From assembly GCA_944367185.1 (NCBI GenBank), contig CALVWM010000001.1:3189-67188 (forward strand): a DNA stretch of 64,000 nt, written 5' to 3'. Source of the DNA: an uncultured Clostridia bacterium. GTDB lineage: Bacteria; Bacillota; Clostridia; Christensenellales; Borkfalkiaceae. Shown in pieces: positions 4,026 to 58,419 of the stretch. The first letter of the stretch is position 1. Every line of letters starts with the position of its first letter. The position numbers were made by a program, and so were the translations under genes. Under the pieces are notes generated by a model. The model did not search any database, was not told where the DNA came from, and was given only the letters and a program-made list of their open reading frames with translations.

Positions 4026-6017
4026 CTATTCAATCACAGGAAAAATAGAAATTCTCAAACGTGTAGTTGCATAAGGCACAAGTTTCACAATTTCCTCTTT
4101 CTCTGTTTGAGATAATGAAAAATTCCTGACCCTTGGAGTAAATAATGCCTTCTTATGAACAATTGTCCCCTTCCCGCGCGGTGTCTTTCTTGTCAAAAAA
4201 GCATTTACCTTTCTCAGTTTCCAAGCCGGAATGCCATGCACCACAACATCGATCGACAATCCGCTGTTCCCTGCGCGCCAAGGTTCTTCCTGTACCGAGG
4301 CGGTACTGCGAAATATGGGATCGATTTCCCGCACAGACGGCATACCGTAGTTCCATTTGCTCCCCGGGTACAATGCGTAGTGCGGAAAATCCTCATTGTT
4401 CCGATCACGTAACCCTAAAATGATTTTTTCTTCACGGATCGGAAGAGCATATAACAGCGGTCCCTTTTTCAGGCTCACTCCGCCGGCATTTTGTATAAAC
4501 TCTATTTTATCTTCAAACTCCAAATCTATTACATCGCCATCAGAAAAAATCCTGTCGATACGGATCATGCTTCCTTCCAGACGATAAGAATAATCTCTTC
4601 CATTGATTGAAATATGCGTTCTGACCGCCCATGACGGCATACGAAGCCGCAATGAAAATTCCGCCGTACCCTCCGTTTTTATATAAAATTTTACAGAATT
4701 CCTAAACGGATATGATGTTTTTTCTTCTATTTCCACGAAGGATCCGCGGACTTCCGTCCTGCATACCGACGGCGCGTACAGAAATGCAATCAGCCCTTCG
4801 CGATCGCACATCCAGCTCCGCGCAACGTAATTCGGCATAAATCTGTGCACATTCCCCGCGCAGCACGACAAGAACTTTTCGGGCGCATAAGACATCCAAT
4901 CTTCCCCTCGGAAAAAGAAAAGATGATTTGACGTATCGTCGGCAAGGACCTGATTCGGGCAGGAAAAATACTGTTCTCCTCTAAAATCGTCATCCACGGC
5001 TCCGAGCCCGGCATTAAACACCGCATTCTCGATCCAATCGCCATATTTTCCGTCGCCCGTTATCATAAAAAGATATCCGAGCGCCCATGTCAGATCGGAT
5101 ATGTCGCACGTCTCATGCGCCGCCTGGGAATCGCTGTTCCCGTTCAGATACTCCGACGAACTATTAACGCCGTCAATGAGCATCTGATCACGATAAAGTT
5201 TATCGAAAGCGTTAACCGCCGCACGTTTATAAATTTCTTTTTTCGTGTAGAGATATAAAATTGCCGGAAGTTTACATATTTCATTATAAGTGACACCATG
5301 ATTGCGACACACTTTCCGATCGGAAAGCATCCCCTGCAATGTCAGGTCTCTCATTTCAGCCCCTTCCGGAGCGTCGGAATCATCTGCATAAATCTGATTA
5401 AATACCGCATAAGCCTCTTCCGACATTTCCAAAAAGCGCTCGTCTTTTGTTTTTCCGTATAACCATAACGCGCATTCTATGGCGGATATATCCCTCACGG
5501 CAATGATCCTCGCCCCGCTCGGCGATTTTATCCGCTCTTTCAGATCCGCACGGATATAGTGTTTTTTTAATGCTTCCAATATACGACCGTCTCCTGTCGC
5601 CTCATACTCCGCCATCAGCGCGCGGAAATAAACAGAATGCGCCCAAAGCATTCCGTCTTTCAGAAAAGACGGTCCGATATATCCGTCCGCATCCGCGTTT
5701 TCAATAGCAGGATATATCTTGCCCTCGGCATACTCGATCAGTTTTTTATCATCGATCAGCCATCCGCAACGAATCATTCCATCAATCCAGTAAGCATTCT
5801 GCTCAAAAGGCGTCCAGGCATCATCGACGCAATTCAGTCCGCCAAGAAAATTTTCATCCTCTCCGACGACAATATCCTTTTCCCCTTCCCAATATTTTGT
5901 GACGAACGGTTTGCCGATCCTGCCCATATTCCCCGTCAGTCCGCTCGCCTGCGTTTTTAAAAACCGCTCGATCCAGCCGCCGGCTTTCAGTTCGCACAAT
6001 CTTAATTCATGAATCAT
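4026..6017 (-). CDS. GH127-like (DUF1680 / beta-L-arabinofuranosidase-fold) glycoside hydrolase
   Basis: 663 aa. The HETCDISD and LSCCAGNVHRF segments resemble the Glu/Cys3 zinc-site motifs of GH127/GH146 enzymes. No signal peptide. Confidence 0.55.
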   Translation of the reverse strand: MIHELRLCELKAGGWIERFLKTQASGLTGNMGRIGKPFVTKYWEGEKDIVVGEDENFLGGLNCVDDAWTPFEQNAYWIDGMIRCGWLIDDKKLIEYAEGKIYPAIENADADGYIGPSFLKDGMLWAHSVYFRALMAEYEATGDGRILEALKKHYIRADLKERIKSPSGARIIAVRDISAIECALWLYGKTKDERFLEMSEEAYAVFNQIYADDSDAPEGAEMRDLTLQGMLSDRKVCRNHGVTYNEICKLPAILYLYTKKEIYKRAAVNAFDKLYRDQMLIDGVNSSSEYLNGNSDSQAAHETCDISDLTWALGYLFMITGDGKYGDWIENAVFNAGLGAVDDDFRGEQYFSCPNQVLADDTSNHLFFFRGEDWMSYAPEKFLSCCAGNVHRFMPNYVARSWMCDREGLIAFLYAPSVCRTEVRGSFVEIEEKTSYPFRNSVKFYIKTEGTAEFSLRLRMPSWAVRTHISINGRDYSYRLEGSMIRIDRIFSDGDVIDLEFEDKIEFIQNAGGVSLKKGPLLYALPIREEKIILGLRDRNNEDFPHYALYPGSKWNYGMPSVREIDPIFRSTASVQEEPWRAGNSGLSIDVVVHGIPAWKLRKVNAFLTRKTPRGKGTIVHKKALFTPRVRNFSLSQTEKEEIVKLVPYATTRLRISIFPVIE

Positions 6018-33810: not shown

Positions 33811-34391
33811 CATCGTAACACTTTCAGATCATATCATTTTCCCTTTCGCATTTTTTATTTGCCTTACTCTCCTTCAAAAAATCATACAGGGCAAGTTCCA
33901 ATGAGTACGCCAAGAGATCAACCGTTTCTTTGGGCATATTTTTCAAAGATGGGTTTTTCGGAACTTCCACTTTTAAGTTTTTTTCCTTTGCCTTTCTCAT
34001 GCAAATATTGTAATGTGTTTTTTGTAAAAAAGTAAGCGCATACTCCGCTCACTTTGCTCATACGCTCCGCACATTTACCATAGCCCTACCGTAACTCCTT
34101 GTCTTTCTCCTTTGGGGTTATCGGAAAAATCCGCTGCCGTCAAGGGGAAAAATTATCGCTGAAACCATTGAGACGACCATAAAGGTCGCCTCATTTTTAT
34201 TTTTTATGCAATAATTTTTCTGGCAAGGCCCCTGCGCCCTTGACTGCATCTTCTTTTTCCGATCTCTGTTCGGGTTGTCGAAAGACAAAGGAGAATTTTT
34301 TGTCCTTCGGCGGCATTGTCTGTCCTGCAATGCGAAAGTTTTCTTCGTATTGGGATTTTACAATGCGAAAAAACGCAAAGGGAGACTTACC

Positions 34392-35954
34392 ATGAAAAAA
34401 GCAGCTATTTATGCACGCTATTCAAGCGATGCACAGACGGAGCAGTCAATCGAAGGTCAGCTTCGGGTATGCCAGCAGTACGCCAAAAACAACGATATTC
34501 TTGTCGTGGATACCTACATCGAACGCGCCATGACGGGAACGAACGATATGCGCCCCGATTTCCAAAGAATGATCCGCGACAGCGCAAAGCGCCAATGGGA
34601 TTATGTTATCGTTTATAAGCTCGACCGTTTCTCAAGAGACAAATATGCAACAACCATTCATAAGCATACGCTGAAAGAAAATGGCGTAAAGCTCTTGTCC
34701 GCCATGGAAAATATTCCGGATACACCCGAGGGGATCATTCTCGAAAGCCTTCTTGAGGGCATGAATCAATACTATTCCGCCGAGCTCTCCCAGAAGGTGA
34801 AGCGAGGCTTAAAGGAGAGCTATCTCAAAGGGAACTTTACAGGCGGTTCCGTCCCCTACGGCTATGACGTCAAAGACAAGAAGGTCAGCATCAATCCGGA
34901 AGAGGGCGCCGTGATTAAGGAAATATTCGGTTTATATGCGCAAGGTTATACCGTAGAATATATCGCAAACGAGCTTAAAAGTCGTGGAGTCCGCGCAAAA
35001 AACGGCGGCTATCTGAAAGAAAAGACGATCTATAAAATGATGACAAATGCCCGTTATAACGGAAAAACCATTCACGGCGATACTGTCTATGAAAATATAT
35101 ATCCTAAAATCGTAGACGATGATACATGGCGCAAGGTACAGGAGCTGCATGAAGAAAACAAACATTCCCCGGGGCGCAAAAAAGAGATCTATGATTTTAT
35201 CCTTTCGGGAAAACTTGTTTGCGGCGAGTGCAAACATAACATGGTCGGCATCAGCGGCACCAGCCAATCAGGAGTCAAATATTATTACTATACCTGTGCG
35301 CACAAATTCAGGCGACACCCCTGCCCTTCCACTTCTGTCAGAAAAACAGAACTTGAAGATCTTGTCATTGAGACGACGGCAAAACTGCTTTCAGACGACG
35401 GCTCCCTTGAATTTCTCGCTGAAACAATATGCAAACGAATCAACGAAAATAACAAGACAAACACGACGATCAAATCGTTGGAAACCAGAAAAGCCACTGC
35501 CGTAAAATCGTCAAGAAACCTGATCAGCGCAATTGAACAAGGTATAATCACAGAGCAGACAAAGGAACGATTGAAAGAGCTTGAATCCGAAATCGCAAGG
35601 CTTGAGTTTGATATTGAACAGGAGCGACAGCGATCCTTCATTGAAATTACCACAGATAAAATCATCCGCTTCTTAAAAACAGCATTGCGCCCGGATTATC
35701 AGGACATCACCGCACGGAAAGTTCTTGTGAAATATCTGATACGCGACATTATCGTATACAACGACAGAATCATCATCAACTACTACTTTACAGAGCCCGT
35801 ACGCCCGCACAAGCGAACGGAGAGCTCCGCAAAGGAAACGGAACGGGCGGCTCTTGCAGCCGCTCCCCTTTCCGCCTCGTATTGTTCTAACAAATGCGAA
35901 ATCTCGCCACCAGAAAAGGCACCCTTTCGGGTGCTTTTTCGTTTGGGAAAATAG
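34392..35954 (+). CDS. large serine recombinase (resolvase domain + recombinase domain + zinc ribbon + coiled coil)
   Basis: The ATG at 34392 follows AAGGGAG. Motifs: AAIYARYSSDAQ catalytic-Ser motif, LDRFSRD, CGECKH...YYYYTC zinc ribbon, and the C-terminal IIVYNDRIIINYYF motif. The frame appears intact. Confidence 0.9.
   Translation: MKKAAIYARYSSDAQTEQSIEGQLRVCQQYAKNNDILVVDTYIERAMTGTNDMRPDFQRMIRDSAKRQWDYVIVYKLDRFSRDKYATTIHKHTLKENGVKLLSAMENIPDTPEGIILESLLEGMNQYYSAELSQKVKRGLKESYLKGNFTGGSVPYGYDVKDKKVSINPEEGAVIKEIFGLYAQGYTVEYIANELKSRGVRAKNGGYLKEKTIYKMMTNARYNGKTIHGDTVYENIYPKIVDDDTWRKVQELHEENKHSPGRKKEIYDFILSGKLVCGECKHNMVGISGTSQSGVKYYYYTCAHKFRRHPCPSTSVRKTELEDLVIETTAKLLSDDGSLEFLAETICKRINENNKTNTTIKSLETRKATAVKSSRNLISAIEQGIITEQTKERLKELESEIARLEFDIEQERQRSFIEITTDKIIRFLKTALRPDYQDITARKVLVKYLIRDIIVYNDRIIINYYFTEPVRPHKRTESSAKETERAALAAAPLSASYCSNKCEISPPEKAPFRVLFRLGK
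35915..35939 (+). terminator. Rho-independent terminator overlapping the last codons of the recombinase ORF
   Basis: Stem AAAGGCACCC-TTTC-GGGTGCTTT followed by TT. Confidence 0.6.
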
Positions 35955-36132
35955 CTCAAAGTCAAAAAAATACCGGTTCTTTTGGAACGAACGTTACGGT
36001 ACTTTCGATGAGAAAATTCTGACCGACAACCATGAGACCCCTGTTTTGATACGTTACTTCAAGAGGTCGAATATTTTTTTCAGTTGTATTAAAATTGATA
36101 AAGCAAATCCATAAATCACTATCGGGCACTCC

Positions 36133-36161
36133 TTGACTTTTTGCTTCACTTCCCTTATAAT
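36133..36161 (+). promoter_or_regulatory. sigma-A promoter of mini-unit 1
   Basis: TTGACT, 17-nt spacer, TATAAT. Confidence 0.6.
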
Positions 36162-36167
36162 GAAAGC

Positions 36168-36227
36168 ATAATCAGGTATGGGTTTAGCCCATGCGCCCCC
36201 GGACAGATGAGAGCCGGGGATTTTTTT
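36168..36227 (+). ncRNA. candidate small RNA 1 (~60 nt), unclassified
   Basis: A promoter is followed by the conserved module GAAAGCATAATCAGGTATGGGTTTAGCCCATGCGCCC (hairpin GTATGGG/CCCATGC). The unit ends with the terminator CCCCGG..CCGGGG plus T7. There is no SD-preceded ORF. Confidence 0.45.
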
Positions 36228-36255
36228 ACTCCAGCTTATCCCCGAGCTTGATTGC

Positions 36256-36284
36256 TTGACTTTTTATTTTATCTTCTGTATCAT
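36256..36284 (+). promoter_or_regulatory. sigma-A promoter of mini-unit 2
   Basis: TTGACT, 17-nt spacer, TATCAT. The sequence from the -35 box through +38 is nearly identical to unit 1. Confidence 0.55.
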
Positions 36285-36290
36285 GAAGGC

Positions 36291-36371
36291 ATAATCAGGT
36301 ATGGGTTCAGCCCATGCACCCGCCGACATCATTGCGGCATTGCCTCGGGTGGTTGAACCCCGAGGTTTTTT
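36291..36371 (+). ncRNA. candidate small RNA 2 (~80 nt), paralog of small RNA 1
   Basis: Same 5' module with 3 substitutions, then a different middle part (GCCG..CGGC hairpin), then the terminator CCTCGGG..CCCGAGG plus T6. Confidence 0.45.
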
Positions 36372-36386
36372 CATTTTCAAGAAGAA

Positions 36387-36419
36387 CGCGCCCCGAAGGA
36401 AAATTTCCTTCGGGGCGCG
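36387..36419. terminator. strong hairpin terminating the V-ATPase operon (convergent with the sRNA units)
   Basis: 14-bp stem CGCGCCCCGAAGGA / TCCTTCGGGGCGCG, 35 nt downstream of the ntpD stop. Confidence 0.65.
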
Positions 36420-36453
36420 ATCGAATTTACTTTTTTCTCGACTTTATTATTTC

Positions 36454-37089
36454 TCATGTGCCGCGTTCTTCGAGCATGCTCTTGACCTTCATCAGGCGCG
36501 TCAGGCTCGCGCGCTCGTTCTCCTCCAGCTTCTGGGAGATATAGCGGATGGTCTCCTCCAGATCGGGGATCATGACGTACTCCAGGGCGTTGACGCGGCG
36601 CTTGCTTCGTTCGATCTCCTCCGCAAGCATCGCCGTCGCCTTCTCTTTCTCTGCAAGAAGCAGCAGGCGCGAAACCAGCTTCCCCGCCGCCGCCACGGCA
36701 TAGTCCGCCTCGCTCGTGACCTCTGCAAAGGAGTAGGGATACAGTTCCTCGCTGCGCGTCTCCTCGAGGTGCAGCTTGGGAACTTCCAGATTGAGCACGT
36801 TCGCCGTCGTACACTCCAGCGTCAGAGAGACAGAGGGCATGGAAAAGACGAGCTCGATTTCCTTTTTAGACATGCTCCCGCGGGCGAGCGAAAACTGCCG
36901 CAGCACCTGCACGACTTCCGCCTCCACTTCGTCGTGCAGACGCATGGTCTCCCGCACCATCACGGAAAACCGCCGCACCATCTCGTCCGTCTTATCCTTG
37001 AGCAGCTTGTGTCCCCTCTGCGCCGTCTTGAGCCTTGCCTTCAGTCGCTTGAGCTCCATGCGCGTGGGATTTACGTTGATCCTCGCCAA
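36454..37089 (-). CDS. ntpD: V-type ATP synthase subunit D
   Basis: 211 aa, beginning MARINVNPTRMELKRLKARLKTAQRGHKLLKDK. Confidence 0.9.
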   Translation of the reverse strand: MARINVNPTRMELKRLKARLKTAQRGHKLLKDKTDEMVRRFSVMVRETMRLHDEVEAEVVQVLRQFSLARGSMSKKEIELVFSMPSVSLTLECTTANVLNLEVPKLHLEETRSEELYPYSFAEVTSEADYAVAAAGKLVSRLLLLAEKEKATAMLAEEIERSKRRVNALEYVMIPDLEETIRYISQKLEENERASLTRLMKVKSMLEERGT

Positions 37090-37100
37090 TGTCGTCCCTC

Positions 37101-38471
37101 TTACTTTTCGTAGTACTTGTCGAGATATTCTTCCTTGATGCGCTTGAGCTCCGCCCTGGGCAGGATATGCAGCAGTTCCCAGCCAAGATCGAGCGTCTCT
37201 TCAATGCTCCTGTTGACGGTAAATCCCTGCGAGACATACCGCTTTTCAAACTCTTCCGCAAATGCCGCGTACAGTTTGTCCGTCTCCGAGAGCGCCGCTT
37301 CGCCGAGGATAGCGGAGAGCTCCTTCGCCTCCTTGCCGCGCGCGTACGCCGAAAAGAGCTGGTTCATCGTGTCCGCATGATCTTCGCGCGTCTTGCCAGC
37401 GCCGATGCCCTTGTCCTTTAATCGGGAGAGCGAGGGCAGCACGTCGATGGGCGGCGTGACTCCCTTTTTGTACAGCTCGCGCGAAAGGATGATCTGCCCC
37501 TCGGTGATATAGCCCGTCAGGTCGGGAATGGGATGCGTCTTGTCGTCCTCGGGCATGGTGAGAATGGGGATCTGCGTGATCGAGCCCTTCTTGCCGCGGA
37601 TCCTGCCCGCGCGCTCGTACATGGCGGCGAGGTCGGTGTACAGATACCCGGGATAGCCGCGCCGACCGGGCACTTCCTTGCGCGCGGCGGAGACTTCGCG
37701 CAGCGCTTCGCAGTAATTTGTGATGTCCGTGATGATGACGAGCACGTGCATGCCCAGATCGTAGGCAAGATACTCTGCCGCCGTAAGCGCCATTTTTGGC
37801 GTTGCGATGCGCTCGATGGCGGGGTCGTTGGCGAGGTTTGTAAACAGCACGGTGCGCGTGATCGCGCCCGTCTCCTGGAAGTCGCGGATGAAGTAGTCCG
37901 CCTCCTCATAGGTGATGCCGACCGCCGCAAAGACGACGGCAAACTTCTCGTCGCTCCCCAGAACGCGCGCCTGTCGCGCGATCTGCGCTGCAAGTTCGGC
38001 GTGCGGAAGCCCGCTCATGCTGAATACGGGCAGTTTTTGCCCGCGCACGAGGGTATTCAGCCCGTCGATCGCGGAGATGCCCGTCTGGATGAACTCGTTG
38101 GGATAGTCGCGCGCGGCGGGATTGATCGGCTCGCCGTTGACGTCCATGCGCTTTTCGGCAAGAATGGGCGCGCCGCCGTCACGGGGGTTGCCCATGCCGT
38201 CGAATACTCTGCCGAGCATGTCCTCCGAGACGGCAAGCTCCATGCTGCGCCCCAGGAACCTTGCGCGGCTCGTGGCGATCTGCAGCCCGTGCGAGTTCTC
38301 AAACAACTGGACGAGCGCTCTGTCGCCGTCCACTTCCAGCACTCTGCCGCGCCGCGTTCCGCCGCCCGACTGCACGATCTCCACCAGTTCGTTGTATTTA
38401 ACACCCTCGACGCCCTCGACGAGCATCAGGGGACCGACGACCTCTTTTATAGTCTTATACTCTTTCAACAC
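37101..38471 (-). CDS. ntpB: V-type ATP synthase subunit B
   Basis: Homology begins at [16 protein letters not shown]. The GTG at 38471 follows GGGAGGGG. The ORF-track extension to 38555 overlaps ntpA. Confidence 0.9.
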
Positions 38472-57988: not shown

Positions 57989-58033
57989 AAAAAGGGGGCG
58001 GGGACTGGCCAAGCCAGTCCCCGCCCCCTTTTT
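57989..58033. terminator. strong hairpin directly downstream of the tmRNA 3' end
   Basis: AAAAA-GGGGGCGGGGACTGG-CCAA-GCCAGTCCCCGCCCCC-TTTTT. Confidence 0.7.
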
Positions 58034-58051
58034 GGTGGACCTGCGCAGAAT
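58030..58051. repeat. direct repeat copy 2 (overlaps the genuine tmRNA 3' end)
   Basis: Identical 22-mer to 57842-57863. The sequences diverge immediately beyond it. Confidence 0.85.
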
Positions 58052-58419
58052 TGAACTGCGGTCTTACAAGGTTCGTCTGCGGACACTACACGCTTAGTCT
58101 GTGATCAGATCTCGCCCGCGGGCAGTCCACAGACAACCTGCGCCTTGGGCATACTTCCCTATGATCCTCTCAGGGGACGGAAGTGTTTCCCCCAAGTAGG
58201 TTCCCCACTCAATTGACGCCCTGTTCCCGACCGTGGGCAATCGGGGCAGGACGGGGCTTAAATGGTTAAGCCGCAAGCGCTACACGGCGCGCGGAAGCGC
58301 GACGTGCAACAGCCGATCTCTTTTTGGAATCAGCATTTAAAATTGTTCCGTTTTTCCGGAGCCGAGCCTCCGACGTGCGTCCGTCAAACTCCGCTTGCAA
58401 TCGAATCCGAAACAGGCCC
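58033..58419 (-). ncRNA. ssrA: transfer-messenger RNA (tmRNA)
   Basis: Minus-strand 5' end reads GGGCCUGUUUCGGAUUCGA... The 3' end reads ...CGCAG-UUCAAUU-CUGCG-CAGGUCC-A-CCA. Together these give a 7-bp acceptor stem with G3:U70, a T-arm and an encoded CCA. The internal tag frame ends GCG CUU GCG GCU UAA (..ALAA stop). Confidence 0.88.

Follow-up and report, generated by a model that had tools for sequence, protein, structure and literature searches.

A tandem pair of predicted small-RNA genes in a Clostridia genome and their structured family, apparently of filamentous-phage origin and unmatched in Rfam

Tandem sibling small RNAs (sRNAs) such as OmrA/OmrB, LhrC1-5 and PrrF1/2 are trans-acting regulators encoded in core genomes and have known targets, and phages encode short RNAs directed against phage messages, among them P22 sar, P1/P7 c4, P4 CI and lambda OOP, which restrain late or anti-repressor functions. 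The type I toxins of the Bacillus subtilis pairs bsrG/SR4, yonT/SR6 and txpA/RatA are small hydrophobic peptides. These prophage pairs have antisense RNAs that overlap at the 3' end, and the SR6 gene is situated between two cistrons of a polycistronic prophage message and extends into the 3' end of the first and the 5' end of the second (PMC5848175; PMC3834814; PMC3531473); YonT is 58 amino acids (aa) long (PMC5848175). In type III systems (ToxIN, CptIN, TenpIN/AbiQ), the locus has a single promoter, the toxin gene is preceded by identical RNA repeats in tandem, and a terminator separates the two (PMC5086642); some of these systems are found on mobile elements (PMC5086642; PMC3401426). Here we analyse two promoter-hairpin-terminator units that lie near 36 kb of a 64,000-nucleotide (nt) stretch of contig CALVWM010000001.1 from an uncultured Clostridia bacterium (this whole stretch is called the window), together with their relatives in other genomes, where such units converge on a protein gene that we call X.

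That both units are independent sRNA genes of one structured family, which has no match in Rfam, is a well supported prediction from sequence, and a phage origin of these RNA genes is likewise well supported. As to what they are in the window, we lean towards reading them as orphaned copies of an antisense, antitoxin-like sRNA of a prophage.

Two predicted RNA genes and their family

The two units are marked by a 74-nt direct repeat with 81% identity (36132-36205 and 36255-36328) at a spacing of 123 nt. An initial annotation, made from the sequence of the window alone, had described two promoter-hairpin-terminator units at this spacing, and the repeat, the promoters and the folds were all recovered. 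The predicted features are as follows.

36133-36227, + strand: unit 1, promoter-hairpin-terminator
36133-36161, + strand: unit 1 promoter, TTGACT-17-TATAAT, sigma-70-like, 11 of 12 consensus positions matched
36168-36227, + strand: unit 1 RNA, about 60 nt, type A (from the fold, covariance model R1 and alignment A4)
36168-36176, + strand: unit 1 lead, AUAAUCAGG
36176-36183/36187-36194, + strand: unit 1 hairpin P1, followed by the linker GCGCCC
36197-36202/36214-36219, + strand: unit 1 terminator stem, with the U tract at 36221-36227
36256-36371, + strand: unit 2, promoter-hairpin-terminator
36256-36284, + strand: unit 2 promoter, TTGACT-17-TATCAT, sigma-70-like, 10 of 12 consensus positions matched
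36291-36371, + strand: unit 2 RNA, about 81 nt, type B (from the fold, R1 and alignment A5)
36291-36299, + strand: unit 2 lead
36299-36306/36310-36317, + strand: unit 2 hairpin P1, followed by CACCC
36322-36325/36335-36338, + strand: unit 2 hairpin P2, followed by AUUG
36343-36349/36359-36365, + strand: unit 2 terminator P3 with the conserved loop UGGUUGAAC, and the U tract at 36366-36371

Each unit is predicted to fold into an unpaired lead, an 8-base-pair (bp) hairpin (2 of the pairs being G-U) and a terminator hairpin with a U tract, with folding energies of -24.2 and -35.1 kcal/mol for units 1 and 2, respectively (z = -3.4 and -3.3); the middle hairpin is an extra element of unit 2. The hairpin had been described as a 7-bp stem, and those pairs are present, but a closing G-C makes it 8 bp; the sole substitution within it falls in the loop, as had been observed. 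Exactly 6 nt separate the -10 box from the A of AUAAUCAGG in all 19 promoter-bearing copies, and the distance is the same in unit 2 as in unit 1. Because this distance is invariant, conservation begins at the predicted first transcribed base, and the comparison with these 19 homologues sets the predicted transcription starts at A36168 and A36291, so that the RNA would begin with AUAAUCAGG and not with the segment GAA(A/G)GC that had been taken as its 5' end. A promoter scan of the 2.5-kb region found 5 promoter-like sites vs. 1.6 expected, and the 29-nt core of the module occurs exactly 2 times in the 64-kb window and in 0 of 100 shuffles.

Downstream of the units there is no gene on the + strand, as already stated in the initial annotation, since ntpD (36454-37089) and ntpB converge from the - strand; the units are hence not riboswitches or leaders of a downstream gene, and at related loci the flanking genes differ and lie mostly on the opposite strand. 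The open reading frames (ORFs) had also been given correctly, as one of 10 codons in unit 1 and a 270-aa read-through frame (36301-37113) antisense to ntpD. Coding on the sense strand was rejected because the short ORFs of the units vary in length and sequence between copies. A 15-bp GC-rich hairpin at 36387-36419, located only 16 nt beyond unit 2, serves as the - strand terminator of ntpD. Part of the unit 2 P1 hairpin (GGGTTCAGCC, 36303-36312) has its complement in the loop and 3' arm of the terminator (GGTTGAACCC, 36351-36360); an anti-terminator pairing of these segments was discarded, as it is specific to the window and not kept in other type B copies.

A scan of the whole window against Rfam 15 returned only a transfer-messenger RNA (58033-58419, - strand, 129.5 bits, tag peptide ADSKKRSAVARRASARRVALAA). 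In the region 35900-36500, with E-values up to 10, it gave only terminator-driven noise (best 22.8 bits vs. a gathering score of 60), and in eleven related loci only tRNA, 5S and ZTP were found. The initial annotation could not match the arrangement to a known RNA class, and no Rfam family matched it in the window or in the related loci scanned.

The module recurs in about 30 loci (designated by L numbers, as are same-species contigs) from Christensenellales-type metagenome-assembled genomes (MAGs) and metagenomes. A scan with lead and hairpin over one genome per species gave 10 loci, whose source MAGs are labelled Candidatus Scatosoma, Gallimonas, Coproplasma or 'Christensenellaceae/Clostridia bacterium', and a metagenome scan with the hairpin fixed and the lead left free gave 8 more. 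Since these two scans fixed much of the module, copies gathered via a neighbouring protein were needed, and 12 X-centred loci (L029-L040) were collected by protein alone. The copies are of two types. In type A (short, as unit 1), P1 is followed by CACCCCCGG, which leads into the terminator; type B (long, as unit 2) consists of P1, CACCC, P2, AUUG and the terminator P3 with the conserved loop UGGUU(U/G)AA(U/C). The initial annotation had pictured a conserved scaffold with a variable tail, which is apt for the common 5' module and the differing 3' parts, whereas the tail takes two discrete conserved forms, types A and B, each present in several genera.

Constraint at the RNA level is indicated by paired changes. 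In P1, UAUGGG/CCCAUA is replaced by UACGGG/CCCGUA in L029 and L036, by UAAGG/CCUUA in L031 and L032, and by UGCGUU/AACGCA in L034, and P2 and P3 also covary. In the type A alignment (A4), 95.9% of cells are paired and 7 pairs are changed on both sides, and in the type B alignment (A5) the corresponding values are 96.7% and 9; 0 of 500 shuffles reached these values in either case, and slid controls were 25-50% paired. The stem therefore covaries in related genomes, a check that the initial annotation had proposed, and so do the other helices. A covariance model (R1), built from type A copies only, scored 76.8 bits on unit 1 (E = 1 × 10−16, unit 1 being a member of the seed) and 51.5 bits on unit 2, found no further copy in the window, and recovered members outside the seed in L040 (70.5 bits), L036 (43.8 bits) and the second unit of L028 (42.1 bits). 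In L026, a 137-aa ORF antisense to the RNA covers it. Antisense coding was rejected, given a stop in frame in L025, the Trp to Arg and Ile to Val replacements that the P1 changes in L029 and L036 would entail, and a length below 40 aa for all antisense ORFs of the window units.

Two tandem longer units in L028 (- strand, 1116-1394) combine a different 5' domain with the same hairpin-CACCCCCGG-terminator 3' part, and show an extension of the family to longer RNAs. Arrays of several units, in which unrelated promoter-short RNA-terminator units with similarly strong promoters adjoin, occur in L012 (2050-3100), L013 (3730-4400), L016 (- strand, 4500-5150) and L034 (5430-6000), and no unit of these four arrays had a match in Rfam. 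Beside the RNA promoter of L014 lies a gene (570-1604) with a weak match to the MID domain of bacterial Argonaute (E = 3 × 10−4, 21.3 bits vs. a cut-off of 27).

Gene X and its filamentous-phage-like setting

At related loci, X lies on the strand opposite the RNA gene and runs towards it, with its stop codon in the RNA terminator or within a few nt of it. Its product is a soluble protein of 140-290 aa with a basic N-terminal tail, and belongs to a family of at least 504 members, none of which is informatively named. In the loci collected by protein alone, the gap after X always holds 1-4 promoter-sRNA-terminator units on the opposite strand, and over all sources a convergent sRNA unit is present at 14 of 14 distinct X loci. 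The subfamilies of X and the RNA families go together: X of the L020 type is always found with a second RNA family (family 2), and the other types of X with family 1, the one described above. RNA genes without X occur in the window, L011, L012, L016 and L017/L018; X without an RNA gene was never seen. The next phage gene has its start codon within tens of nt of the sRNA promoter.

Family 2 RNAs have the core GACCCGC-N4-GCGGGAUA, followed by a terminator, and always adjoin L020-type X. Their loci are:

L013, 6740-6860: family 2 RNA
L020, 1560-1680: family 2 RNA
L022, 1450-1580: family 2 RNA
L034, 5430-5550: family 2 RNA
L038, 4440-4570: family 2 RNA

X sits in a string of genes on one strand, which encode a large secreted protein, X, a Zot-like P-loop ATPase or a larger membrane P-loop protein, and a rolling-circle Rep. 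The Zot family of Pfam scored above its cut-off of 20.3 in L020 (31.0 bits) and L019 (21.9 bits), homologues of Zot were found by tblastn in L013, L015, L022, L026, L031, L032, L038 and L039, and Rep genes were identified in L033 (REP_ORF2-G2P) and L036 (Rep_1). Judged by its gene content (a Zot-type ATPase, a rolling-circle Rep and genes on one strand), the parent string looks like a filamentous, inovirus-like prophage.

A rolling-circle element might use such hairpins at the DNA level, as a single-strand (minus-strand) origin for which the short RNA is the primer, and the strand from which the RNA is made would indeed be the one displaced or packaged, as deduced from the one-strand genes and Rep. 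We regard this as most improbable and rejected the model, because the units have ordinary duplex promoters and no partner sequence from which these could form in single-stranded DNA. Furthermore, the gap after X in L029 and L036 (about 90-125 nt) is wholly filled by promoter and RNA, and the full Rho-independent terminators and products of 60-85 nt are not primer-like.

Searches with X against Pfam, PHROGs, PADLOC and PDB sequence profiles gave no significant match. An AlphaFold2 model from a 37-sequence alignment (mean predicted local distance difference test score 83.9) has a five-stranded barrel and two C-terminal helices. Its top matches among solved structures were Staphylococcus aureus MazF (4mzm and 4of1, E = 5 × 10−3 to 1 × 10−2, probability 1.0), Kid (1m1f) and other MazF proteins, with ToxN chains weakly matched and further down, and its top matches among predicted viral structures were PemK-like proteins. 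A MazF/PemK/Kid-like fold of X is therefore moderately supported as a model-based prediction.

With such a fold, the structured sRNAs might bind and neutralise X in the manner of a type III antitoxin (cf. ToxI/ToxN), in which case the window units would be stand-alone antidotes or immunity factors. A MazF/Kid-like fold is common to type III toxins (PMC5086642), and ToxN is among the PDB fold matches, albeit weakly. In addition, the conserved unpaired lead, the CACCC motif, the P3 loop UGGUUUAAU and the covarying stems exceed what antisense pairing needs, X subfamily and RNA family co-vary at all 14 loci, and the RNA occurs solo whereas X does not. Nevertheless, we consider a protein-binding antitoxin unlikely: the units are not tandem identical repeats and share no promoter, the RNA lies downstream of the protein gene and convergent to it, not upstream and co-directional (PMC5086642), and the near-identical type B RNAs of L020 and L023 accompany X proteins that are only about 25% identical.

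Alternatively, the units could be trans-acting sibling sRNAs of the host that regulate mRNAs via the unpaired 5' lead and the C-rich linker, with the tie to phages being secondary. In several genera, copies that lack phage genes (those at the five places without X listed above) still have intact promoters close to consensus and intact terminators, 4 of 6 distinct copies recovered with the pattern that left the lead free retain the lead, and the flanking genes are unrelated between loci, with no synteny. However, most copies lie within the X/Zot gene string, and the only complementary sequence that recurs is the RNA's own antisense strand. For the lead, a possible trans-acting seed that the initial annotation had proposed for target prediction, no recurrent target was found in the window or in eight phage-bearing loci, a negative that is weak because the search covered about 64 kb of genome and loci of about 8 kb. 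A host regulatory role of this kind appears to us improbable.

The tRNA-Tyr site and the recombinase island

The proposed origin of the window pair as orphaned prophage RNA genes has to be read against its surroundings, in which three further features matter.

34275-35954, + strand: large serine recombinase gene (Pfam Resolvase, Recombinase and Zn_ribbon_recom)
35907-35912, + strand: CCACCA, end of the tRNA-Tyr gene and right junction of the island, where identity with L005 begins
36229-36257, - strand: probable remnant of the X 3' end, between the units (by CTTGATTGCTT identity)

The GC content steps from about 50% to about 60% near 36 kb. Left of this step is a carbohydrate-utilisation island with glycoside hydrolases, an ATP-binding cassette (ABC) sugar transporter and an AraC regulator, and the recombinase gene is at its right end. 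We compared 10 same-species contigs, which were retrieved from public assemblies through the NtpD protein, and both units are present in 10 of 10. In L005, which has no island, the tRNA array Met-Asp-Phe-Thr-Tyr runs straight into the sequence that starts at window position 35907; therefore, the island sits in the 3' end of tRNA-Tyr, and the units are on the host side of the junction. They are host-side DNA between the tRNA array and ntpD, with or without the island.

The initial annotation had linked the units to the serine recombinase, a link that does not survive the comparison with L005, where both units are unchanged although the recombinase island is missing. Nor does the module co-occur with recombinase genes elsewhere, as homologues of this recombinase are confined to the species of the window and were found at 0 of about 30 other RNA-bearing loci. 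The position of the units beside the recombinase is an accident: a separate island later inserted into the neighbouring tRNA gene and created the apparent tie. Duplication of the unit by integration (an attachment-site model) was also discarded, as no third copy is present at the other end of the island within the window and the empty site has both units.

The island exceeds 36 kb and has about 50% GC. The recombinase ORF crosses the junction at 35907, and its stop lies in host DNA. In other strains the same site is empty (L005) or holds a truncated recombinase and different cargo (L002 and L006). The only polymorphism within the units among the 10 contigs is a T to A change in L002 at the base equivalent to 36256, the first base of the unit 2 -35 box. 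Far from this region, a short ORF at 124-522, possibly a fragment, weakly matches the C-terminal part of the phage integrase family, with a score under the cut-off.

L020 (Candidatus Gallimonas merdigallinarum) has a full element directly after the tRNA array that is also found in the species of the window, and the order and orientation (tRNA-Tyr, Zot side, RNA, X) match those of that species. Although the X gene itself had no tblastn match in the window, the 11-nt sequence CTTGATTGCTT at 36247-36257 is identical to the 3' end of X in L019 and to a remnant in L012. Its position after the RNA terminator is the same in all three, and it reads KQSS, compared with the C-terminal motif H(T/S)KQS of X. 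The phage genes are gone from the window locus, and only the RNA genes and this short trace of X are left. Because the L020 element shares the site and because of the CTTGATTGCTT remnant, thin as the latter is, the most plausible view is that the pair is left over from such an element at the tRNA-Tyr site.

Such a residue could also be inert: fragments of a decayed prophage that were orphaned recently and no longer have a function. The loss of the phage genes from the locus and the adjoining tRNA gene, a common place of integration, are compatible with this, and selection is unreadable from population variation because the same-species contigs are more than 99.8% identical in this region. On the other hand, both promoters, both terminators and all helices of the pair are intact, and most differences between the two copies fall in the promoter spacer, while the RNA module is nearly unchanged. 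We hold mere debris to be quite unlikely.

Proposed mechanism and comparison with known systems

In the antisense, antitoxin-like reading that we prefer, the mechanism is inferred as follows. Transcripts of X should read through the RNA gene, because on the X strand there is no U tract after the hairpins. Such a transcript would be fully complementary to the sRNA, over the 3' region of X and the intercistronic RNA between X and the morphogenesis genes, and duplex formation would then allow the sRNA to regulate X in an antisense, antitoxin-like way, by decay of the X message or control of its translation. Convergent transcription would add interference with read-through into the Zot-like and morphogenesis genes. 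At the window locus, the phage genes would have been lost, and what is left would be a pair of orphan RNA genes with a small remnant of the 3' end of X. As their partner gene is gone, the pair would now be inert or act in trans, possibly on incoming related elements.

Several observations weigh against this reading. With respect to the RNA, its sequence is far more conserved than cis-antisense pairing requires, and this excess, together with the near-identical RNAs that accompany divergent X proteins in L020 and L023, suggests that the RNA has a protein partner or a trans target. In some arrays, several RNA families occur together, the sample of about 30 loci was partly ascertained through the RNA sequence itself, and the promoters, starts and ends of the units are all predictions. 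With respect to the element, no relatives of X or of the elements were found in IMG/VR, so that the label 'phage' rests on gene content, and the remnant of X in the window consists of the 11-nt identity. With respect to X, its fold matches are modest (Foldseek E about 3 × 10−3 to 5 × 10−3, template modelling score 0.4-0.65), and a relationship to MazF was not detected at the sequence level by PDB profile search, PADLOC or Pfam. An hhalign comparison of X with B. subtilis EndoA was not significant (E = 0.52); in the register of this non-significant alignment, the invariant Arg59 of X falls on the residue of EndoA that corresponds to Arg25. Because the sequence-level tests do not confirm it, the MazF/PemK/Kid-like fold is a lead and not a finding, and the constant position of X within the gene string would also suit a core phage protein instead of a toxin.

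A bolder proposal is that X and the convergent sRNA arrays form a new RNA-antitoxin module on filamentous phages of gut Clostridia, comprising a toxin of MazF fold, independently transcribed structured sRNAs and cognate subfamilies, from which orphan RNAs are kept by hosts as antidote or immunity. We put it forward as doubtful. If X were a toxin of the MazF type and these RNAs restrained it, the arrangement would represent a new layout of RNA-based toxin control, and the orphan RNA genes would be candidates for host-kept immunity. Independently of this, the analysis defines a structured small-RNA family, unmatched in Rfam, in poorly studied gut bacteria, and ties it to an unannotated protein family with more than 500 members and to filamentous-phage-like elements. 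A full-text term search of the inovirus literature examined, that on inoviruses of gut Clostridia included, found no mention of small or non-coding RNAs.

Compared with the known systems, the units resemble the tandem sibling sRNAs in being adjacent paralogous genes, each with its own promoter and terminator, that have a common segment and differ elsewhere; unlike them, most members of the family are phage-borne and lie antisense to a constant neighbour, and the search for targets gave none. They are similar to the phage antisense and immunity RNAs as short, apparently phage-encoded RNAs transcribed against phage messages, but have no sequence or structure relationship to them (Rfam negative) and come from a different host group. 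With type III systems, the related loci have in common a protein with a Kid/MazF-like fold (predicted in the case of X) and an adjacent small structured RNA that is often multicopy, although X had no match to ToxN/AbiQ in PADLOC or Pfam, and the RNA units, each of them with a promoter and a terminator of its own, are encoded on the opposite strand downstream of X and do not form identical repeats. In layout, the related loci resemble the type I pairs, in which a small RNA with its own promoter and terminator is convergent to a prophage gene and overlaps its 3' end; this overlap is found in the related loci and not in the window, where X is absent. The toxins of those pairs are small hydrophobic peptides, whereas X, with 140-290 aa, is soluble and basic and has a predicted MazF-like fold, and the RNAs here are in arrays of 1-4 units with a sequence conserved across genera. 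A prophage antisense small RNA beside a putative toxin is a known kind of arrangement, whereas its layout and its partner here are new.

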